The translations under genes and the position numbers were made by a program. This document shows, piece after piece, positions 1-13,761 of a DNA stretch of 50,227 nt. The DNA lies in IMG/VR virus record IMGVR_UViG_2529292913_000006; one strand, given 5' to 3'. How positions within the stretch are numbered: position 1 is the first letter of the stretch; each line of letters starts with the position of its first letter. Below the pieces are notes generated by a model. The model made no database searches and was not told the DNA's origin. It saw nothing but the letters and a program-made list of their open reading frames with translations. This stretch comes from a virus. Taxonomy: Duplodnaviria > Heunggongvirae > Uroviricota > Caudoviricetes.

Positions 1-1143
1 CTATGCTGTTTTGATATCTACGATAATCCAGTCTTTACCACGATCATCATTGTATCGGTCGGTCATTTTTCTGGATTTATGGCCTAACAATTTTTGCGTA
101 TCCAGACCCTGTTCCCGATATAACCGTTCTGACAGAGATCGCTGCTCATGAAATGTGGGCGCAGTTCCTTGCTCCCATTTTATGCCACATTTTTCCCGGG
201 CCTTTTTAAAAGCCGTTGTCAGAGTATTTGCAGAAACCTGGTCTCCTCTGTTTGCTTGAGAGGTAGTGTGACGGTAATGGACCAGATATTTACTAACAAC
301 AGCATCCCTGCACTGAGATATAACTTCACGAAGGGTAATATTCAGAGCATCGCATTTCAGGTTAAGCGGAATAGCAAGTTTTGAACCGGTTTTTTCCTGA
401 GTAATGTGCAACATGTCGTCCCATATATCAGAGAATTTCAAATTGCAGATATCGCCTAAACGTTGTCCAGTAACAAGAGCAAGTAGCATGCCGCATTTTA
501 AATAGGGCTGCCGTCTGCTTACGCTTTCAAATATTGCCTGCCATTCGGGCAGTGACAATCTTTGGCGGTTTACTCGATTTCGCGGTTGTTTTGTTGCCTG
601 CGCTGGGTTAAATCCTGGCGGAACATGTCCTGCGTGTTGTGCTTCTTTGAAGACGTCGATCAACACCATTCTCACGACTTGCGCCATCCTGTTATGACCT
701 TCAGCCTTTACAGCATCAATTATTTCGGCAATATCAAGTGCGGTAATATCCTTGAGGTGTTGCATTCCACAATGCTCACGGAAAAGACGAATGGGTTTGC
801 CTTTTTGCCGATAGGAGTTGGGTCTTAGTTCATTATGTTGCAGCCTGTCCTCCTGGATAGAAATATATTTATCAAGCCATTCTGTCACCGTAATGTCTGA
901 GCGCCTGCCTTTCATTCTTTCCAGACGCTCATTGACGCTTAATATTTGTCGGGTACGTTGTTCAGCAATAATGGTATTTGCTTCAGTAGCAACTTGTTTT
1001 GCTTCATTCTCATCAGTTCCTAAGCTATGAAAACGACCGGATAGTGGATGTTTGTATTGCCAATATACCTTTCCGGTTCGCTTATCTAATTTGCAATATA
1101 AATTGGGTATAGAGATTTTGTGAGATCGGGGTCTAGCAGCCAT
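1..1143 (-). CDS. int: Phage tyrosine integrase (lambdoid, icd-targeting type)
   Basis: 380-aa ORF, ATG at 1143, stop at window edge; C-terminal tyrosine-recombinase motifs; xis immediately upstream; icd 3' fragment at the other prophage end. Confidence 0.9.
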   Translation of the reverse strand: MAARPRSHKISIPNLYCKLDKRTGKVYWQYKHPLSGRFHSLGTDENEAKQVATEANTIIAEQRTRQILSVNERLERMKGRRSDITVTEWLDKYISIQEDRLQHNELRPNSYRQKGKPIRLFREHCGMQHLKDITALDIAEIIDAVKAEGHNRMAQVVRMVLIDVFKEAQHAGHVPPGFNPAQATKQPRNRVNRQRLSLPEWQAIFESVSRRQPYLKCGMLLALVTGQRLGDICNLKFSDIWDDMLHITQEKTGSKLAIPLNLKCDALNITLREVISQCRDAVVSKYLVHYRHTTSQANRGDQVSANTLTTAFKKAREKCGIKWEQGTAPTFHEQRSLSERLYREQGLDTQKLLGHKSRKMTDRYNDDRGKDWIIVDIKTA

Positions 1144-2014: not shown

Positions 2015-2112
2015 CTTCCATTAATCCCTGAATTGTTGGTTAATACGCTTGAGGGTGAATGCGAATAATAAAAAAGGAGCCTGTAGCTCCCTGATGATTT
2101 TGCTTTTCATGT

Positions 2113-3112: not shown

Positions 3113-3793
3113 TCATCGCCATTGCTCCCCAAATACAAAACCAATTTCAGCCAGTGCCTCGTCCATTTTTTCGATGAACTCCGGCACCATCTCGTCAAAA
3201 CTCGCCATGTACTTTTCATCCCGCTCAACCACGACATAATGCAGGCCTTCACGCTTCATACGCGGGTCATAGTTGGCAAAGTACCAGGCATCTTTTCGCG
3301 TCACCCACATGCTGTACTGCACCTGGGCCATGTAAGCCGACTTTATGGCCTCGAAACCACCGAGCCGGAACTTCATGAAATCCCGGGAGGTAAACGGGCA
3401 TTTCAGCTCAAGGCCATTGCCGTCACTGCATAAACCATCGGGAGAGCAGGCGGTGCGCATACTTTCGTCGCGATAGATGATCGGGGATTCAATAACATTT
3501 ACGCCGGAAGTGAACTCAAACAGGGTTCTGGCGTCGTTCTCGTACTGTTTTCCCCAGGCCAGCGCTTTAGCGTTAACTTCCAGAGCCACACCGGTGCAAA
3601 CCTCAGCCAGCAGGGTGTGGAAGTAGGACATTTTCATGTCAGGCCACTTCTTTCCTGATCGGGGCTTTGCTATCACGTTGTGAACTTCTGAAGCGGTGAT
3701 GACGCCGAGCCGTAATTTGTGCCATGCATCATCCCCCTGTTCGACAGCTCTCACGTCGATCCCGGTACGCTGCAGGATAATGTCCGGTGTCAT
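3113..3793 (-). CDS. exo: Lambda exonuclease (Red-alpha)
   Basis: 226-aa protein recognised as near-identical to lambda Exo ([39 protein letters not shown]...). Confidence 0.95.
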
Positions 3794-4575
3794 GCTGCCA
3801 CCTTCTGCTCAGTGGCTTTCTGTTTCAGGAATCCAAGAGCTTTCACTGCTTCGGCCTGTGTCAGTTCTGACGATGCGCGAATGTCGCGGCGAAATATCTG
3901 GGAACAGAGCGGCAATAAGTCGTCATCCCATGTTTTATCCAGGGCGATCAGCAGAGTGTTAATCTCCTGCATGGTTTCATCGTTAACCGGAGTGATGTCG
4001 CGTTCTGGCTGACGTTCTGCAGTGTATGCAGTATTTTCGACAATGCGCTCGGCTTCATCCTTGTCATAGATACCAGCAAATCCGAAGGCCAGACGGGCAC
4101 ACTGAATCATGGCTTTATGCCGTAACATCCGTTTGGGATGCGACTGCCACGGCCCCGTGATTTCTCTGCCTTCGCGGGTTTTGAATGGTTCGCGGCGGCA
4201 TTCATCCATCCATTCGGTAACGCAGATCGGATGATTACGGTCCTTGCGGTAAATCCGGCATGTACAGGATTCATTGTCCTGCTCAAAGTCCATGCCATCA
4301 AACTGCTGGTTTTCATTGATGATGCGGGACCAGCCATCAACGCCCACCACCGAAACAATGCCGTTCTGCTTATCAGGGAAGGCGTAAATTTCTTTCGTCC
4401 ACGGATTAAGGCCGTACTGGTTGGCGACGATCAACAATGCGATGAACTGCGCATCGCTGGCATCACCTTTAAATGCCGTCTGGCGAAGAGTGGTGATCAG
4501 TTCCTGTGGGTCGACAGAATCCATGCCGACACGTTCAGCCAGCTTCCCTGCCAGCGTTGCGAGTGCTGTACTCAT
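3790..4575 (-). CDS. bet: Recombination protein Bet (Red-beta)
   Basis: 261-aa protein recognised as lambda Bet; 4-nt overlap with exo. Confidence 0.95.
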
Positions 4576-4580
4576 CCGTT

Positions 4581-4877
4581 TTATACCTCTGAATCAATAT
4601 CAAACTGGTGGTGAGCAATGGTTTCAACCATGTACCGGATGTGTTCTGCCATGCGCTCCTGAAACTCAACATCGTCATCAAACGCACGGGTAATGGCTTT
4701 TTTGCTGGCCCCGCAGCGTTGCAAATGATCGATACAGAGTGATTCAAACAGGTGCTGTGGAAGACCTTTTTCCATGTCGTCTGCCAGTTCTGCCTCTTTC
4801 TCTTCACGGGCGATCTGCTGGTAGTGACGTGCCCAGCTCTGAGCCTCAAGACGATCCTGAATGTAATAAGCGTTCAT
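4581..4877 (-). CDS. gam: Host nuclease inhibitor Gam (short form)
   Basis: 98-aa protein matching lambda GamS ([21 protein letters not shown]...); ATG at 4877. Confidence 0.9.
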
Positions 4878-4953
4878 GGCTGAACTCCTGAAAATGGCTG
4901 TGAAAATATCGCCCGCGAAATGCCAGGCTGATTAGGAAAACAGGAAAGAGGGG

Positions 4954-5160
4954 TTAGTGATTCAGGCCGTTACCGCGTCCGTCGAGAAAAACTTCTACGA
5001 GCAAATCACGGGTATAAGTGCGCTCGATGCCGCGATGCAGATAAAGCCGTCCGCGTAAATTAGCTGATGCAGTCCAGGTACCATCTTTGTGTTTGACCAG
5101 CATTCCTGGCATGACCGCACCGCGATTAACGGTCTGCGTTCCGTAATGTTGATGAACCAT
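4954..5160 (-). CDS. Small hypothetical protein, first gene leftward of OL (kil/N position)
   Basis: 68 aa from ATG at 5160 preceded by AGGAG SD; the longer 136-aa track ORF starts at TTG and is probably over-extended. Confidence 0.4.
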   Translation of the reverse strand: MVHQHYGTQTVNRGAVMPGMLVKHKDGTWTASANLRGRLYLHRGIERTYTRDLLVEVFLDGRGNGLNH

Positions 5161-5435
5161 AAAAACTCCTGCCCGTAAGCTGGGCTGCTGAACATATAAA
5201 GACTTCTGCGCGTATTCAGGCGGTGGATGGCCGCCGGTTGTCATAACTAAGCCGCCTCGTTGAAGCGACTGAGGTATGAAGTGTTGAGTTGATTTCAGCT
5301 GGTCACACCGACGTTCACGCGTCCGCTTCACCCCTCGCACTCCCCGGAGCCTGCTGAAATTCAAGCTGCGGATCTAAGCGGTCATCGCAACGGTGAATCA
5401 GGTGATTGCCGTATCGTTGTGTTGTTGCGACATGG

Positions 5436-5520
5436 TGATAATAGCTATTGCTATTGATGATATCAATACTTATTGCTATTGCTAGATGTGTTTTGATATT
5501 AAATATTTGATAGCAAAAAG
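5436..5520. promoter_or_regulatory. Putative OL/PL operator-promoter region
   Basis: Repeated TTGCTATTG motifs (5448-5456, 5473-5481, inverted copy near 5510) shared with the cI-cro intergenic region; inverted repeat TATTGAT/ATCAATA at 5453-5469. Confidence 0.5.
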
Positions 5521-5611
5521 AATTAATTTTGTGACTTGCATCGCATAGCGATAACTGAAGCGGGGTTGTGGTGGTTTTTTGAACGGTGTGTGTGATGAGG
5601 GGAGGCAAAAG

Positions 5612-5645
5612 AAAACCCGGCACGGTGGCCGGGACGTTTTATTTC
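5612..5645 (-). terminator. Rho-independent terminator ending the immunity-region operon
   Basis: Stem CCCGGC/GCCGGG (5616-5633) followed on the minus strand by a T-run; sits immediately downstream of the DUF4411 stop. Confidence 0.6.
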
Positions 5646-6151
5646 AAAGAAAAATTATGACTAGCGTATCTTGGAAGAAATTCATATAGTGTTAATGTCT
5701 TAACGCCGTGAGAAGCAGCAGCATCCGGGATCATTATTCTTTTTTTAGGTTTGCCACCGGATGGTTTCTCATGGGTAATAATAGTATATCCATGTGTCAT
5801 CGCATGGGCTATTAAAAAAGCATCTGCTTTTTCATGGCTTGCAAAATCAAACTTTGCCTTTTCGGTAACATCTAATTTAGTTGACCAATTTATTAACTTT
5901 GCATAATTTTCTATTGAACTATGCTCATCTTCGAAGAATGATGATGGTAACTCTTCTTTAATCCATTTACACAATGGATCATCTTTTGCACATAGTTCTT
6001 TTTTTACAGCATTAATGCTATAAATCAGACCATTAATGTGTAAAGCGAGAAGAAAATCCCAAAATATTTTGCAATAATTGAAGTTATATGCAAAGTTTTT
6101 TGCCTCTATGAAGACATTACTATCAATTAAGAATTTTCCATTATGAATCAT
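5639..6151 (-). CDS. DUF4411-family protein (predicted PIN-like nuclease), candidate toxin/effector
   Basis: 170-aa ORF; ATG overlaps the stop of the upstream ImmA-like gene (ATGA coupling); family assignment from memory of sequence features. Confidence 0.75.
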   Translation of the reverse strand: MIHNGKFLIDSNVFIEAKNFAYNFNYCKIFWDFLLALHINGLIYSINAVKKELCAKDDPLCKWIKEELPSSFFEDEHSSIENYAKLINWSTKLDVTEKAKFDFASHEKADAFLIAHAMTHGYTIITHEKPSGGKPKKRIMIPDAAASHGVKTLTLYEFLPRYASHNFSLK

Positions 6152-7287
6152 AGAGATTCTCGTTTTTTATAAAATTCAACAACTGTATCTGCTTTTACAT
6201 TTAGCAGTACGCCTGCTTCCCTTAATGGTAATTGTTGAGACATTGCTTTGGAAATTATTATATTCGTAAGTTTTGGACTGTTACGAACAGGTAATGTGTT
6301 AAAGAAAGAACCACCATTGGATTCTTTTTTGGGCTTATTGTAAGCTTGATCTTTAATTATCTCCAAAGTGTTTCTTTCTATCAAATCTAATTGTAACGCT
6401 TTGATTGCACAAGCGAAATCACTAACCTTAAATAACTTAGAAACCTCTTTTACTCGATAATAATTATTATCGCTGGATGCATTAAGCCAGAAAGATTTGA
6501 AGAGATTATCAGGCATTAAGATTTCAGCAGCAACTTTATTACAAAAAGATTCTATGTTTTTTTCTGTGTCCCACCCAGAGACTCCATCGACTCCAAGCCA
6601 AAGATGAGCCACCTCATGAAATAATGTAAATACCTGCGCAGATAACGCGTCCGAGCTATTTACAAAAATGATCGGAGCAACGCTATCAGATATACAGAAA
6701 CCACGAAACTCTCGCGTGTCAAGTTTTCTTTTATTATTATTACCCACAACACCATTCTTGAAAACTAATACGCCAGTGTCTTCTATTAGTTTTGCCACTT
6801 TAGAAAAATAGCTCTCAAAAGTGACATTTTTTATCTCTTTTTGTATATCAAAATGTATTGTGTTTGCTATGTCTGTAGCAACAACCTTATAATTTAATTT
6901 TCTATTAAATTTAAATTTACCAATAAAATCGAGTGGATCATCATTACCATTTTCTCTTAAATAGTCTTTGTACCACTCAAGTTTATATTCTATATCATAG
7001 TAAACATCAAAAAAATCTTTTCCTAACTCACGGCTATTTATAGCTTGCCTTAAGTCAGGGATCTTGGGTTTGGCTGGAGTTGGTGGCGTTTCAAGAAATA
7101 AAAAACCGAAAGGGATTCCTCCAATTTTTGCCAGTTTTTCTGCTGCGGATTTACTTACCACTCCGTTAAGAAATTTATTAATCTTTTTGGGCATGACTTG
7201 GTCAGCAAGAGTTTCGATAGAAACTCCTTGAGAATTTGCTATCCAATCAATCATCTTCCTAGACAATTGAAATTCAACCGCTGCCAT
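6148..7287 (-). CDS. HTH (XRE-type) plus ImmA/IrrE-family zinc metallopeptidase (COG2856-like)
   Basis: 379 aa; HEXXH motif (FHEVAHLWLG) in central region; N-terminal HTH-like segment; good SD (AGGTGA) upstream. Confidence 0.8.
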   Translation of the reverse strand: MAAVEFQLSRKMIDWIANSQGVSIETLADQVMPKKINKFLNGVVSKSAAEKLAKIGGIPFGFLFLETPPTPAKPKIPDLRQAINSRELGKDFFDVYYDIEYKLEWYKDYLRENGNDDPLDFIGKFKFNRKLNYKVVATDIANTIHFDIQKEIKNVTFESYFSKVAKLIEDTGVLVFKNGVVGNNNKRKLDTREFRGFCISDSVAPIIFVNSSDALSAQVFTLFHEVAHLWLGVDGVSGWDTEKNIESFCNKVAAEILMPDNLFKSFWLNASSDNNYYRVKEVSKLFKVSDFACAIKALQLDLIERNTLEIIKDQAYNKPKKESNGGSFFNTLPVRNSPKLTNIIISKAMSQQLPLREAGVLLNVKADTVVEFYKKRESL

Positions 7288-7316
7288 GTTATCACCTAGT
7301 TAAAAAACCTATTATT

Positions 7317-7354
7317 CAACAATTATTGTTGTGCACCTGATAGCTAACGTCAAG
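7317..7354 (-). promoter_or_regulatory. Putative promoter and palindromic operator upstream of the ImmA-like gene
   Basis: 15-bp palindrome CAACAAT-A-ATTGTTG at 7317-7331; TTGACG -35-like hexamer on minus strand at 7349-7354. Confidence 0.35.
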
Positions 7355-7415
7355 CCTAATTTATTGCCTTACTACAGTAAGCTGAAAAGCGAAGTGCATA
7401 ATTTTGTTCTGATTT

Positions 7416-8108
7416 CTACCCATGCTTTCTATATGTCTGCGGCATGCTCCCGATGACTTTCCCGAAGATGAACACGCGGTTCATCTCGTCTTTCTCGATC
7501 GGGTCCCACGGTGAGTAGCTCTTGTTATCAGAGATAACCAGCAGCTTATCCTTCATCATTTGCAGGCGTTTTACATGGGCGGTGTCGTCATACAGAAACG
7601 CATAGATACCATCACCGTCGAAAGATTTAACCGTGATATCAACGAACAGCAGATCACCTGGTTCGATCGTTCCTGACATGCTGTCACCACGCACGTTAAT
7701 GATGCGGATATTTTCCGCCTTCCTGCCATCGAACATGTGACGAGCATCGTCAAACGAGTATTCAACCGAGCGTAGAACTTCTACAAACTCACGGTTGATT
7801 ACACCCGGCCCGGCACTGACTTCTATATCAAGAACGTCAATTTTGAAGTATTTGGAATGGCTGACAGCAGGCTTCCCTGATTGTTGACCGTCATTTCTCA
7901 TCGGGCCTATGCCTGAAGAGAGCCATTCTGTTCGAACACCCAATGCATTAGCTATTTCAACAATTTTTGTTGAGCCGCGCGCGTTGCCGCTTGTCAGTCT
8001 CCAGATTGTGGGTTGAGCTACGCCAGACGCCTTTGCAAGAGCGCCTTGAGACATTCCAGATTGTTCCATCGCTAGATTTAAGCGATCAGCAAGAGTTTCT
8101 TTTTTCAT
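7416..8108 (-). CDS. cI: Prophage repressor cI (HTH plus LexA-like S24 autopeptidase)
   Basis: N-terminal HTH (MSQGALAKASGVAQPTIWRL), C-terminal S24 domain (GDSM serine, KRL lysine); ATG at 8108 preferred over the track TTG at 8144. Confidence 0.85.
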   Translation of the reverse strand: MKKETLADRLNLAMEQSGMSQGALAKASGVAQPTIWRLTSGNARGSTKIVEIANALGVRTEWLSSGIGPMRNDGQQSGKPAVSHSKYFKIDVLDIEVSAGPGVINREFVEVLRSVEYSFDDARHMFDGRKAENIRIINVRGDSMSGTIEPGDLLFVDITVKSFDGDGIYAFLYDDTAHVKRLQMMKDKLLVISDNKSYSPWDPIEKDEMNRVFIFGKVIGSMPQTYRKHG

Positions 8109-8148
8109 AAGTTTTAATTTATACGCTTGCGTATTGATGGTCAAAACA

Positions 8149-8212
8149 CGTTTTGCTATTGCTTGGATTAATACTCATTGCTATTATTCATTCATTGCAA
8201 TACCAATAGGAA
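8149..8212. promoter_or_regulatory. Putative OR operator region with divergent PRM/PR
   Basis: TTGCTATTG at 8153-8161 and related repeats at 8177-8187 and 8193-8210, between divergent cI and cro. Confidence 0.5.
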
Positions 8213-8218
8213 TTGATA

Positions 8219-8446
8219 ATGACAAATCAAACCATTCAACTCGCAATCAGTATTACAGGTAGTCAAAAACGACTGGCAGATCTATGCGGTGTAGCCCAAC
8301 CCACAGTTTGGCGTTGGCTACACGGTGGCGGAATTGATGCCCGCTATGTAATGAAAATTGTCTCAGCCACTGGTGGAAAGATTAAACCAGCAGATATTCG
8401 TCCCGACCTCGCACCATTGTTTAACGCGAGTAATTCTGCCGCCTAA
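8219..8446 (+). CDS. cro: Cro/YdaS-like HTH regulator
   Basis: Divergent from cI; HTH (SQKRLADLCGVAQPTVWRWL) resembles the cI recognition helix; ATG at 8219 with AGGA SD; track start at 8213 is TTG. Confidence 0.7.
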   Translation: MTNQTIQLAISITGSQKRLADLCGVAQPTVWRWLHGGGIDARYVMKIVSATGGKIKPADIRPDLAPLFNASNSAA

Positions 8447-8470
8447 ACTGCGGCGTTAACTGATAAGGCA

Positions 8471-9016
8471 ATGACTATGCAACCACTTACATACCAACAG
8501 ACTAGCGGATTTAGCCCGACTGCGGTGATAAATCGTTCTCAAACAAAACAAGCTCCAGGCCACGAAAAAATCCGTGATGCCGTCCGCGCCTGGTCGGCTG
8601 TAGATAATCAGGATGTCGTTGCCGCACTCATTGTGAATGAGTATCGGGAGCAGGGCGGCGGCACCATCGATTTCCCTGATGATGTCAGCCGTGCACGCCA
8701 GAAGCTGTTCCGCTTCCTCGATAACAAATTCGATTCTGAAAAATACCGAAATAACGTGCGTGAATTGACCCCGGCAATTCTGGCGGTACTACCGCTGGAA
8801 TATCGCGGCCACCTGGTTGAGCAGGATAGCTTCATGGCTCGGCTGGCTGAAATGGAAAAGGAACTCAGTGAGGCAAAACAGGCTGTCATTCTCAACGCAC
8901 CACGCCACCAGAAACTGAAGGAGATGAGTGAAGGCATTGTGTCGATGTTTCGTGTGGACCCGGATTTGGCTGGTCCACTGATGGCGATGGTCACCACCAT
9001 GCTGGGGGCAATATGA
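8471..9016 (+). CDS. YdaT-like protein (cII position)
   Basis: 181 aa; motifs EYREQGGG and LTPAILAVLPLEYR resemble Rac prophage YdaT. Confidence 0.55.
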   Translation: MTMQPLTYQQTSGFSPTAVINRSQTKQAPGHEKIRDAVRAWSAVDNQDVVAALIVNEYREQGGGTIDFPDDVSRARQKLFRFLDNKFDSEKYRNNVRELTPAILAVLPLEYRGHLVEQDSFMARLAEMEKELSEAKQAVILNAPRHQKLKEMSEGIVSMFRVDPDLAGPLMAMVTTMLGAI

Positions 9017-9102
9017 CAGGTTCGGAAATGGCGAAAGCCGGTCTGCGCGAACAGAACCGACTTTCAGGTGCAAATCGTAACACACTCATTGCGGGAGGAA
9101 TT

Positions 9103-10032
9103 ATGGCAAACACTGCTGAGATATTCAATTTTCCAGTGCCGGATGTGGCACAAAAGGAGCCGCGCGTGGCAGATCTCGACGATGGTTATACGCGCATTGC
9201 AAATGAGTTGCTGGAAGCTGTGATGCTGGCCGGATTAACACAGCACCAGCTTCTGGTCTTCCTGGCTGTCATGCGCAAAACATATGGCTTTAATAAAAGA
9301 CTGGATTGGGTGAGCAACGAGCAACTTTCCGAATTGACCGGGATATTGCCGCACAAGTGTTCTGCTGCAAAAAGCGTTCTGGTAAAGCGTGGGATTCTTA
9401 TTCAGAGCGGGCGGAATATCGGCATTAATAATGTGGTCAGTGAATGGTCAACATTACCCGAATCAGGTAAGAAAAATAAAGTTTACCTGAAAGAGGTAAA
9501 TTTACCTGAATCAGGTAAGAAAAGTTTACCCAAATCAGGTAAAGGCGTTTACCCGAATCAGGTAAACACAAAAGACAAACTAACAAAAGACAATATAAAA
9601 CCTTTTTCGTCCGAGAATTATGGCGAATCCTCTGACCAGCCAGAAAATGCCCTTCCTGTGGTGAAACCGGATGCTGCAATTCAGAGCGGCAGCAAGTGGG
9701 GGACAGCAGAAGACCTGACCGCCGCAGAGTGGATGTTTGACATGGTGAAGACCATCGCGCCATCAGCCAGAAAACCGAATTTTGCAGGGTGGGCTAACGA
9801 TATCCGCCTGATGCGTGAACGTGACGGACGTAACCACCGCGACATGTGTGTACTGTTCCGCTGGGCATGCCAGGACAACTTCTGGTCCGGTAACGTGCTG
9901 AGTCCGGCCAAACTCCGCGACAAGTGGACCCAGCTCGAAATCAACCGAAACAAGCAACAGGCTGGCGTGACAGCCGGCAAACCAAAACTCGACCTGACAA
10001 ACACAGACTGGATTTACGGGGTGGATCTATGA
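9103..10032 (+). CDS. O: Replication initiator O
   Basis: N-terminus (MANTAEIFNFP...VADLDDGYTRIANELLEA) matches lambda O; GGAGG SD before ATG 9103; iterons inside the gene. Confidence 0.85.
   Translation: MANTAEIFNFPVPDVAQKEPRVADLDDGYTRIANELLEAVMLAGLTQHQLLVFLAVMRKTYGFNKRLDWVSNEQLSELTGILPHKCSAAKSVLVKRGILIQSGRNIGINNVVSEWSTLPESGKKNKVYLKEVNLPESGKKSLPKSGKGVYPNQVNTKDKLTKDNIKPFSSENYGESSDQPENALPVVKPDAAIQSGSKWGTAEDLTAAEWMFDMVKTIAPSARKPNFAGWANDIRLMRERDGRNHRDMCVLFRWACQDNFWSGNVLSPAKLRDKWTQLEINRNKQQAGVTAGKPKLDLTNTDWIYGVDL
9455..9610. repeat. Replication origin: four iterons plus AT-rich region inside O
   Basis: Repeated ATCAGGTAA-containing 18-20 bp units at about 9460-9560, followed by an A-rich stretch. 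Confidence 0.75.
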
Positions 10033-10742: not shown

Positions 10743-10820
10743 TATTTAGGGTTATAGGTCTTAGCCCATTTTAAATGGAAGGCAGACATGCAGCCATGCA
10801 TACTTCGCATGGCAACATAA

Positions 10821-11249
10821 TTATTTAGACAAACTATCTAATTTTTGCGTCGCTTTTTGTGTTAGGTCGCTGTAACTGATAAACCCTACGTTAGCACCTA
10901 CAATTAACACTAAGAACACTAAGCTGCATATGGATAGAGTGGCAGATTTATGCTTATGGAAAACAAAATATGCTACTATTGCACTTAATATGAAGGAAAT
11001 GAATAGAAATATAGATGTTGATGTTTTTAGATATTTTTCAGGAAATAATGGGTGAGCAATAATGTATACAAGATTAAGTAGTATATAAATTGCTACCGGA
11101 ATGAAAATCATGCTCCAGTGTGTATCTTTTTTGGGAGGGATTGGCTGCAAATAATCAGACACCGTTTTTCCATCAGTTTCAAGAAGAATTACTAGATCTC
11201 TTACTTCACCACTGACTTGAGTGCCATCCTTAGTAGTAATGTTAATCAT
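10821..11249 (-). CDS. Small membrane protein (about 3 TM helices), second gene of an AT-rich cargo pair
   Basis: ATG at 11249 overlaps the TGA of the upstream gene; hydrophobic segments (IFIPVAIYILLNLVYII, IFLFISFILSAIVAYFVF, ICSLVFLVLIVGANVGFI). Confidence 0.55.
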   Translation of the reverse strand: MINITTKDGTQVSGEVRDLVILLETDGKTVSDYLQPIPPKKDTHWSMIFIPVAIYILLNLVYIIAHPLFPEKYLKTSTSIFLFISFILSAIVAYFVFHKHKSATLSICSLVFLVLIVGANVGFISYSDLTQKATQKLDSLSK

Positions 11250-11623
11250 TTTTTCCCTCCAAATACGATGCCCTCTACGTCTTTGGAAGCTTTTTGTGAT
11301 GACCACTCCTCTGAATCAGGTGATTTAATTAAAAATATTGTATCTCCATCAAAAATCGTATTTGTTCCGTAAAAATTTACATTTGATAGATCACCACCAA
11401 AAACCCTCTGCCCACTCGAGGTAATTGCCTCACCTAATTTAGTAAAATTACCTGCAATAGATGATTTTCTTTTTCCACTTCTATTCAAAGTGGCTTTAAT
11501 TACACCACCACCATCCTTAGAGTTAAATAATTGAATGTCCACTCCAGCAGTTGGTTGTATATATTTTGAAAGCTCTTTCTTGAACTTGTTAATATATTTA
11601 TCTTTGTTTTCTTTGTTGGTCAT
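11246..11623 (-). CDS. Hypothetical soluble protein, first gene of the AT-rich cargo pair
   Basis: 125-aa ORF with ATG start, Lys/Gly-rich, no recognisable domain; antisense to the replication module. Confidence 0.55.
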   Translation of the reverse strand: MTNKENKDKYINKFKKELSKYIQPTAGVDIQLFNSKDGGGVIKATLNRSGKRKSSIAGNFTKLGEAITSSGQRVFGGDLSNVNFYGTNTIFDGDTIFLIKSPDSEEWSSQKASKDVEGIVFGGKK

Positions 11624-11887
11624 TGGTTAGATCCATAGTTCTGGCTGTGATTAGGTGAAAGTATACAAGGTTTTTAAAGCGAAGATCACTGTTTTGGCTT
11701 CAAGATAGTTTTGATTTATCGTAATCAATCCGCCATAATCCTCTCATCGGAGCCTGAACAACTCCGGTGACTTCTGCGCATTTAAGGGGACTTAAATGCG
11801 ACCACAATCTGAACTCATCACCTTGTCACAGATGCAGAAATGCACCTGCGATTTTCTGCATTCTGCGGTTTCCGTTAGGGAGGCCGT

Positions 11888-13155: not shown

Positions 13156-13377
13156 TGTTTGAGTTTTATATGGCAGAACTTCTTCGCCACCGCTGGGGGC
13201 ATCTGCGCTTATATCGTTTCCCCGGTTCTGTTTTGACCGATTACCGAATACTGAAGAATTACGCCAAAACCCTGACAGGAGCAGGAGTATGAAGTCAGAG
13301 ATAACAATCAACTAATACTGTTTTGTTGATTTTTGCTTGTAATTGGCGTTCTGGTCTGATTTTTGTGGAGTAAGTTG

Positions 13378-13761
13378 ATGCGTGATATTCAGATGGTTCT
13401 TGAGCGTTGGGGAGCGTGGGCGGCTAATAATCATGAAGATGTGACCTGGTCGTCCATTGCCGCCGGTTTTAAGGGATTAATTACTTCAAAAGTAAAATCT
13501 CGCCCGCAATGTTGTGACGATGACGCGATGATTATTTGCGGGTGCATGGCCCGTCTGAAAAAGAACAACAGCGATTTGCACGATTTATTAGTAGATTATT
13601 ATGTAGTCGGTATGACATTCATGTCACTGGCAGGTAAGCATTGCTGCTCTGATGGTTATATCGGGAAAAGGTTACAGAAGGCTGAGGGCATAATTGAAGG
13701 GATGTTAATGGCATTAGATATCCGGTTAGAGATGGATATCGTTGTTAATAACTCTAATTAA
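13378..13761 (+). CDS. Q: Late-gene antiterminator Q
   Basis: 127 aa ([22 protein letters not shown]...) recognised as the DLP12 QuuD-type Q; GGAG SD. Confidence 0.8.

Follow-up and report, generated by a model that had tools for sequence, protein, structure and literature searches.

The leftward early operon of a lambdoid prophage begins with a gene that, by homology, encodes a cell-division inhibitor of the Kil family, and this gene and the gam-bet-exo genes behind it can probably be transcribed without a dedicated antiterminator. The prophage is the virus record IMGVR_UViG_2529292913_000006 of IMG/VR (Caudoviricetes); the whole stretch of 50,227 nt is called the window here, and all coordinates refer to it unless another locus is named. 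We followed up an earlier note on a 68-aa open reading frame (ORF) leftward of the operator-like repeats of this window. The explanation that we favour, with a probability of about 0.65 for its parts taken jointly, is that the 68-aa ORF is kil, that the 136-aa ORF containing it is spurious, that N, nut and put are lacking, that the leftward promoter PL is joined without a terminator to an RNA cassette ahead of kil, and that this cassette tunes Kil. The region comprises the following features:

4954–5160, minus strand: kil, 68 aa, which opens the PL operon and by homology encodes a cell-division (FtsZ) inhibitor of the KilR/phi80 type
5161–5364, minus strand: N-terminal extension of the 136-aa ORF, non-coding
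5283–5431, minus strand: 5' part of the PL leader (regions A and B), non-coding and terminator-free, in the place of the nutL-N-tL1 or putL of relatives
5438–5466, minus strand: PL promoter, with −35 TTGATA at 5466–5461, a 17-nt spacer and −10 TATTAT at 5443–5438
5432–5505, no strand assigned: leftward operator region OL, with ATTGCTATT-type repeats of families D1, I1 and I2 (direct and inverted)
5616–5633, no strand assigned: bidirectional intrinsic terminator upstream of OL and PL

The 68-aa translation matched phrog_294 of PHROG ("Kil protein for bacterial septation inhibition") with an E-value (E) of 1.3e-37, residues 1–68 aligning with profile positions 13–80 of 83, and NF008465 of NCBIfam ("FtsZ inhibitor protein") with E 1.8e-17, residues 1–68 aligning with positions 1–70 of 73. 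Its NF008465 score of 63 bits lies under the curated Rac-subfamily cut-off of 92 bits, indicating that the window Kil belongs to a sister subfamily of Rac KilR, to which it is 36% identical (BLASTP, E 9e-13; 68 and 73 aa). The identical 68-aa sequence occurs in more than 1000 public contigs under the name "cell division inhibitor protein", a variant differing by one residue carries the PGAP name "phage encoded cell division inhibitor protein", and the label Kil is used in the records of phages Perceval, 4A7 and PhiR30_1. The gene stands directly upstream of gam-bet-exo, the same order as in Perceval, 4A7, HK225 and KO-TP1. Pfam returned no match to the 68-aa or the 136-aa translation. Judged by sequence, the 68-aa ORF is a Kil of the KilR/phi80 type, homologous to Rac KilR. 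In this family, a block of Z-ring formation is known for Rac KilR only, an inhibitor of FtsZ and MreB (PMC5793797, PMC12482147), and by analogy the window Kil would be an FtsZ inhibitor that is toxic on expression.

The earlier note had described this protein as unknown and as resembling neither N nor Kil nor CIII. The first description does not hold, since PHROG, NCBIfam, the similarity to Rac KilR and the exact database match all identify a catalogued Kil. The second is right for N, cIII and lambda Kil, the last of which (47 aa) gave a best tblastn E of 0.71 in the window, at an unrelated place; it is wrong for KilR-type Kil. The profile search proposed in that note placed the ORF in the Kil family, which is the outcome it had named beforehand as contradicting its view. 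Lambda Kil and KilR-type Kil are mutually unrelated (PMC12482147), which is probably why a comparison with lambda missed the identity. Nothing new follows from the ORF itself, as Kil is already catalogued.

The list of ORFs confirmed the 136-aa frame at 4954–5364 (minus strand), which opens with TTG, and within this frame the ATG at 5160, which has GGAG five bases upstream and yields 68 aa. To decide between the two starts, we compared 56 distinct leader-plus-kil sequences taken from IMG/VR contigs and E. coli genomes. In kil (5160–4954), variable sites numbered 0, 1 and 17 at the first, second and third codon positions, with 20 synonymous changes versus 1 non-synonymous; in the extension (5364–5161), read in the kil frame, the corresponding numbers were 12, 6 and 9, with 10 synonymous versus 18 non-synonymous changes. 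Within the extension, CAG has become TAG at 5271 in 15 of the 56 alleles, the frame of other alleles is shifted by the loss or gain of a single nucleotide or by a duplication of 5 nt, and the TTG at 5364 is itself mutated in some. In Citrobacter, Kluyvera, Enterobacter, Silvania and phage HK225, Kil begins from the same methionine (M-V/I-H/N-Q-H-Y-G-T), with in-frame stops upstream, and the window start MVHQHYGT is conserved across genera. These substitution patterns show that the gene is the small ORF rather than the TTG-started one, as the earlier note had taken it to be; the 136-aa ORF is an artefact, a chance open frame that runs over an untranslated, non-coding leader of about 270 nt.

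The promoter consensus scan found PL to be sigma-70-like, with 10 of 12 consensus matches. It is embedded in the OL repeats, which recur at the rightward operator OR (8132–8187), so that the PL transcript is predicted to start at about 5431–5433; in relatives with another immunity region, divergence begins exactly upstream of about 5430. The two-strand terminator scan located the terminator at 5616–5633, which is kept in relatives and ends the transcript of cI and its neighbouring morons. Promoter scan and shared repeats agree in making the small ORF the first gene of the PL operon, leftward of the OL-like repeats, a placement that the earlier note had already made.

We then asked what lies in the place of N. 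PHROG scans of all early ORFs named no N; besides P, cro, Q and two morons, the assignments were to recombination proteins, lambda b-region families, a methyltransferase and a DksA-like protein. Lambda N, phi80 N and HK022 Nun had no match by tblastn in the six frames of the window (best E 0.09); adding lambda cIII and three early proteins of HK225 gave nothing better than E 0.05. The interval from PL to kil holds no candidate ORF, and the ral, ea10 and sieB segment is not present in the window, nor are N, nut and cIII. No boxA was found with at most 1 mismatch (8-mer) or at most 3 mismatches (13-mer) in 5433–5161 (minus strand) or 8195–8500 (plus strand), and window-wide counts of boxA-like sequences were below chance. 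The spacer between cro and the CII-like gene measures only 24 nt and has one hairpin (8438–8454, plus strand; GCCGC-CUAAACU-GCGGC), whose 7-nt loop holds the cro stop codon and which has no boxA, no U-tract and no twin in the PL leader. A similar hairpin, GCCGCC-UAAC-GGCGGC, stands at the same site after cro in HK225.

For put sites, we used a covariance model (R1) made from nine put sequences, namely HK022 putL and putR and seven homologues, the consensus having two stems and the invariant motifs GAACG, GUCGG and GGCGGG..CAGG..CAAU. The HK022 controls scored 97.7 bits (putL) and 55.6 bits (putR); the best score in the window was 11.6 bits, at the unrelated site 22040, and scores in 4800–9200 were at most 6.4 bits with filters off. 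Rfam gave nothing at the gathering threshold anywhere in the window and only chance-level matches in 4800–5700 at E ≤ 10. These results indicate that the absence of N, nut and put in this lineage is real at the sensitivity used. They bear out the earlier note in its statement that N is not recognisable, and the nut and put searches that it proposed for the PL leader and the region after cro found nothing; Q-mediated late control, which it had also claimed, is present (phrog_79, E 4e-53). Its further suggestion, that a divergent protein or an RNA-based mechanism provides early antitermination, gained no support from the empty PL-kil interval, the broken frame of the arginine-rich extension or the put and boxA searches. 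The absence is best explained by loss of an N-tL1 module, which we favour over a hidden replacement.

The terminator scan detected no terminator-like site on the minus strand from PL to kil. Since the 150 nt between PL and the cassette are free of terminators, polymerase should reach kil-gam-bet-exo without an antiterminator, and these genes probably need no dedicated early antitermination. The segment 5161–5430 is present in 2231 of 5426 complete E. coli genomes (about 40%), with nothing annotated there, and the arrangement of PL, leader and kil recurs in 16 deposited phage genomes. Prophages with other immunity share the leader either from the predicted start site (L014 type) or from 5397 (L015 type), the first 37 nt being replaced in the latter; these mosaic breakpoints at the start site suggest that the leader travels with kil and not with the repressor. 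Nucleotide diversity was 0.031 in 5393–5283, 0.040 in 5282–5238 and 0.007 in 5237–5175, compared with 0.045 at third and 0.0004 at first and second codon positions of kil. The 5' 150 nt evolve almost at the synonymous-site rate (about 70% of synonymous diversity). The leader looks weakly constrained in its 5' 150 nt and strongly constrained in its 3' 80 nt.

The constrained part belongs to a cassette (5279–5161) composed of a hairpin, the start of an upstream ORF (uORF) with a second hairpin, a short variable stretch and a conserved region that runs into the Shine-Dalgarno sequence and AUG of the next gene:

5241–5279, minus strand: hairpin H4, with outer stem UCAUA/UAUGA, a 2-bp step, a 9-bp inner stem AGUCGCUUC/GAGGCGGCU and loop AAC
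5219–5244, minus strand: invariant segment AUGACAACCGGCGGCCAUCCACCGCC, with the uORF start MTTGGHPPP (polyproline) and hairpin H5
5235–5219, minus strand: hairpin H5, GGCGG (5235–5231) opposite CCGCC (5223–5219)
5161–5237, minus strand: translation-initiation region (GCGCAGAAGUCUU, then GGAG at 5169–5166, then AUG), diversity 0.007 versus 0.045 at kil third positions

Minimum free energy (MFE) and alifold folding predicted that H4 sequesters AUG 5244 and the GAGG upstream of it, and single-sequence folds of 17 H4 variants with quite different inner stems gave the same predicted architecture. A MAFFT alignment mis-registered these variants, and covariation was therefore scored on a model-guided alignment of 42 distinct sequences; such an alignment leans towards structure, and the independent single-sequence folds agree with it. 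Paired cells amounted to 97.4% versus 85.3% in shuffles and 29–49% with slid partners. Cells with changes on both sides numbered 98 versus 31 ± 4 in shuffles, a value reached by 0 of 500 shuffles, and seven pairs had compensatory changes (slid controls 0.07 or less). A U-G pair present in 39 of the 42 sequences assigns the structure to the PL-sense RNA. H4 is strongly covarying, and the cassette is absent from Rfam.

The pattern that defines the cassette, an H4 closing with UCAUA/UAUGA, then AUGACAACCGGCGGCCAUCCACCG, then a conserved ribosome-binding region 52–86 nt downstream, is found in the window, where the covariance model R2 scored 89.9 bits at 5218–5279 (HK225, 86.6 bits; phi80, 60.5 bits). 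The initiation region is conserved across 95 unique instances, regardless of the gene behind it. In the window, the uORF runs in frame into kil and forms a 96-aa reading frame; elsewhere it has 15–43 aa, often ending in ...EVLY, or is fused to the next gene. Conservation of the uORF region is at the level of nucleotides and not of the peptide, and the window reads GCGCAGAAGUCUU in another frame. A literature search found no paper on the uORF peptide.

An exact pattern scan found the cassette core in at least 120 IMG/VR viral contigs. The cassette recurs in phi80, HK225, Enterobacter phage BHUENT6 and Klebsiella phage KO-TP1, and was not found in lambda, HK022, Rac or the kil loci of other genera. 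The gene behind it belongs to more than 25 unrelated families, kil being one of them. Among 103 instances, 63 had a T-run intrinsic terminator just upstream of H4, 36 had a leader of the window type and 4 had another context. The phi80 cassette lies directly behind the terminator that follows the annotated N gene, and in the IMG/VR locus L117 (6152–6301), one of the 4 others, it begins 3 nt after a put match of 96.5 bits. These contexts suggest that the cassette marks the junction between an early antitermination module and accessory genes.

Further loci varied this arrangement. In L110 (IMG/VR, 3423–4077) the cassette lies about 500 nt downstream of putL. The viral contig L198 has two cassettes about 600 nt apart (6647–6707, 76.3 bits; 7253–7308, 45.4 bits), so the cassette can be reiterated within one operon. 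In prophages of Citrobacter, Silvania, Enterobacter and Kluyvera, kil again comes first behind a PL-like promoter, with a different conserved leader, ..AAGCGCAUCG..GUUCCGCCAGCCUGGCGACAAGG.., about 100–170 nt upstream of it; some of these loci have a long hairpin upstream of kil, of about 18 bp around about 45 nt.

In relatives, the cassette heads the delayed-early left genes behind a tL1-like terminator that follows the N module, or behind putL; in the window lineage, a terminator-free segment of 150 nt links PL straight to it. Under our favoured explanation, PL transcripts would pass the leader unimpeded once the repressor is inactivated, and H4 would conceal the uORF start. If H4 opens, ribosomes would read the polyproline uORF and continue in frame into kil, and this translation would unfold the conserved region at the kil ribosome-binding site, exposing or bypassing that site. 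Kil, a toxic division inhibitor encoded ahead of gam-bet-exo, would then be produced at a low and controlled level. Setting the level of toxic Kil translation is the most likely role of the cassette. Perceval produces virions, so the lineage is viable (PMC9928086).

Several observations weigh against a complete lack of early antitermination. The first concerns the end of the PL operon:

2074–2092, minus strand: first strong intrinsic terminator of the PL operon, AGGGAGCUACAGGCUCCUU and UUUUAUUAUU, with an 8-bp stem and a U-tract

This terminator (2092–2074) follows the orf61-like gene and precedes the dksA-like gene, the DUF4222 gene, xis and int. Its stem is invariant in 42 related loci, and expression of Xis and Int from PL would accordingly need read-through. 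Transcripts from the rightward promoter PR cross a weak hairpin after P (10749–10767) and then about 1.1 kb of antisense, untranslated moron DNA (10821–11623) before they reach ybcN and Q; such an untranslated stretch is a natural Rho target, so that some antitermination may exist. In addition, sister prophages of the L014 type, which are also N-less, carry a perfect boxA, CGCTCTTTAACAA, after cro (L014, an E. coli TUM11352 prophage, 7052–7064, between cro and a YdaT-type CII-like gene). The same module occurs in PhiR5_1, PhiR34_1, PhiR47_2, PhiR26_1, IdasGreatGrand and Turner, which share the N-less arrangement of PL, leader and kil; among deposited phages it is confined to this N-less group and is not found in the immunity type of the window. 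A boxA in N-less sisters hints at Nus-factor-dependent antitermination in part of the lineage, and the cro-boxA module may serve antitermination by host Nus factors (rrn-like) in the absence of N. Hidden Markov model (HMM) and BLAST searches may also have missed a small protein of an entirely new kind.

Two of these regions held further features. The interval between P and ybcN (10743–11887) contains two moron genes on the minus strand, at 10821–11306 and 11246–11623 (PHROGs 16940 and 18061, with no assigned function), and a promoter-like TTGATT-17-CATAAT (11711–11739) with several inverted repeats ahead of ybcN. In the PL operon, the 76-nt spacer between kil and gam has a weak terminator-like hairpin (4911–4928, minus strand; GCCUGGCAUUUCGCGGGC and GAUAUUUUCA), and spacer diversity was 0.0125 in a sample of 15 loci only, under the synonymous-site level.

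A bolder joint reading, which we hold only tentatively and consider clearly less probable than the favoured one, is that the cassette is an undescribed, widespread cis-acting RNA that gates translation or Rho sensitivity, and that the 150-nt RNA has replaced N-tL1 or put, either by acting as an antiterminator or by making one dispensable. If this were true, a common group of E. coli prophages would be a natural "N-independent lambda".

Somewhat less probable is that the long untranslated leader acts mainly through Rho/NusG-dependent attenuation, which would prevent leaky PL transcription from expressing toxic kil. Rho and NusG silence Rac kilR, a repression that a drop in NusG relieves (PMC5793797, PMC12482147), and its structured 5' untranslated region (UTR) yields the small RNA (sRNA) KilS (PMC8175672). 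The window leader would be untranslated over about 270 nt unless H4 opens, and it has stretches with more C than G at its 5' end (C/G 1.53) and at 5303–5213 (1.7). These ratios reach only about the 90th–95th percentile of the operon, however, the middle of the leader is G-rich (0.57), and inspection revealed no sequence similarity to the Rac leader. Attenuation by Rho is compatible with the favoured explanation and does not exclude it.

We regard it as unlikely that initiation at AUG 5244 (MTTGGHPPP...) supplies some or all of the Kil as a 96-aa protein, and not the 68-aa form alone. This frame is open in all window-type alleles seen, its AUG is invariant, and some annotators call the longer form, for example as "prophage Kil protein" in O157:H7 TW14359. 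Yet H4 encloses both this AUG and its GAGG, the same AUG opens a separate uORF of 15–43 aa in HK225, phi80, KO-TP1 and others, and the intervening segment is kept as nucleotides rather than as peptide, being read in another frame elsewhere. The NCBIfam alignment begins at Met 5160, which is conserved as Met1 in genera with stops upstream, and by our own arithmetic an open frame over the 19 intervening codons would arise by chance in about 40% of cases.

Still less probable is that the leader segment 5431–5283 is a new cis-acting antiterminator RNA, analogous to HK022 put, that lets polymerase read through 2092–2074 to xis and int. The segment spans the distance from the PL start to the cassette, the site of putL in L117 and of nutL-N-tL1 in phi80; it moves with kil and not with the immunity region, as the breakpoints at the start site show; the conserved downstream terminator would give it a task; and HK639 is annotated with a put-like site in its PL operon. 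The near-neutral evolution of the segment, the tolerated indels of 1, 1 and 5 nt and the 37-nt swap in L015-type prophages account for our low rating. The segment also has no similarity to put, and local alignment of 5433–5283 with the PL leaders of phi80 and HK225 was no better than with shuffles. The whole-leader fold had no extra stability (z −0.46 versus shuffles). Under allelic substitution, its MFE pairs were kept at chance level (13 kept, 9 broken, 13.0 expected), with support for H4 only. A search of the window found no second copy of the leader that could serve the PR operon as a putR analogue.

A divergent N-like protein, encoded by the arginine-rich extension of the long ORF or by another small unrecognised ORF, is very improbable, for although GVKRTRERRCDQL superficially resembles the lambda N arginine-rich motif TRRRERRAEKQ and PHROG gives no functional label to the phi80-like early-left ORFs of HK225, in which no N homologue could be named and which indicate that HMM libraries are incomplete for N-like proteins, the extension shows non-coding substitutions, an internal TAG, frameshifts and loss of its TTG start, the other early ORFs belong to families that lambda has besides N or have other assigned roles, N, Nun and the early proteins of HK225 had no tblastn match, and nut sites were not found. 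The arginine-rich N-terminus of the long ORF was likewise rejected as a lambda N-type RNA-binding motif, its frame being broken in many alleles.

The remaining genes of the window complete the lambda-like operon order:

1–1143, minus strand: int, beyond which xis and then several small b-region-type genes lie on the same strand
3113–3793, minus strand: exo
3790–4575, minus strand: bet
4581–4877, minus strand: gam (Pfam Gam, E 2e-63)
5639–6151, minus strand: DUF4411/PIN-like moron, low GC (Pfam, E 1e-37)
6148–7287, minus strand: moron with M78 (IrrE-type) peptidase and helix-turn-helix, low GC (E 1e-13)
7416–8144, minus strand: cI
8213–8446, plus strand: cro, YdaS-type
8471–9016: CII-like gene, YdaT-type
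13363–13761, plus strand: Q-like late antiterminator gene (phrog_79)

Rightward past the CII-like gene follow O, P and a DLP12-like nin region that ends in the Q-like gene, whose homologue in phage 4A7 carries a Q-like annotation. Over 4880–5640, identity is 90–97% to the nearest deposited phages, which comprise Perceval, 4A7 and Lambda_4C10 of the genus Bievrevirus as well as several PhiR phages; the lineage to which the phage belongs (Bievrevirus: Perceval, 4A7) is very common among E. coli prophages. The two morons between OL and cI (5639–7287, minus strand) are probably a toxin-antitoxin or defence pair co-expressed with cI. At the same position, strain EC93 encodes a SIR2 protein and 4A7 an ASCH protein, and Perceval and TUM11352 have other cargo.

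The covarying leader cassette is a modestly interesting RNA element and the one feature worth following up. A lineage found in about 40% of complete E. coli genomes combines a lambda-like programme and Q with the absence of N, nut and put, and is a tractable natural system for studying the extent to which a lambdoid phage depends on early antitermination. A further question is by which route transcription reaches xis, int and Q across a conserved terminator and a block of antisense morons. Because the cassette here would control a toxic division inhibitor, it may matter for the fitness of lysogens and for stress responses of the K-12 KilR type.

Compared with lambda, the window has the same operon logic, from PL to kil-gam-bet-exo and on to xis-int, and the same Q-dependent late control, but it lacks N, nut, cIII and the segment with ral, ea10 and sieB. 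Lambda Kil, a ZipA-dependent FtsZ inhibitor of 47 aa, is unrelated in sequence to the window Kil. Rac KilR is a homologous small protein, encoded in a leftward early operon just upstream of recombination genes and, as in the window, behind a long structured 5' UTR; it adjoins recET, whereas the window kil adjoins lambda-type gam-bet-exo, and the window leader has no sequence relation to the Rac leader or to KilS. RefSeq places KilS within the kilR 5' UTR of the E. coli K-12 Rac prophage (3906–4003 of locus L103, minus strand), the annotated sRNA stopping at a terminator-like hairpin some 175 nt ahead of kilR. KilS is a precedent for a regulatory RNA ahead of genes of the Kil family.

HK022 and HK639 resemble the window as N-less lambdoid phages with a non-coding RNA from the PL start site, but the window has neither the sequence nor the structure of put, no second site after cro, and a poorly constrained leader segment. 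The closest likeness is to phi80 and HK225, which have the same H4, uORF and H5 cassette, in HK225 with a gene of the same Kil family behind it, together with a related style of PL and operators and a related cro C-terminus, the stop codon of which is spanned by a hairpin. Their order is PL, a nutL-like hairpin and boxA, N or other early genes, tL1, the cassette and the next gene, so that 0.7–1.3 kb of early genes and an intrinsic terminator separate PL from the cassette; their PL leader has the boxA-like UGCUUUUUAACAA, whereas the window has the unrelated 150-nt segment instead. Hairpin-occluded start codons and proline-codon leader ORFs are familiar, for example from the alternative structures of lambda cIII mRNA and from mgtL and mgtP. 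The cassette resembles such elements in placing a hairpin over a start codon and a stalling-prone PPP uORF before the regulated gene; it has no sequence relationship to them and differs in being portable, standing ahead of more than 25 unrelated genes.

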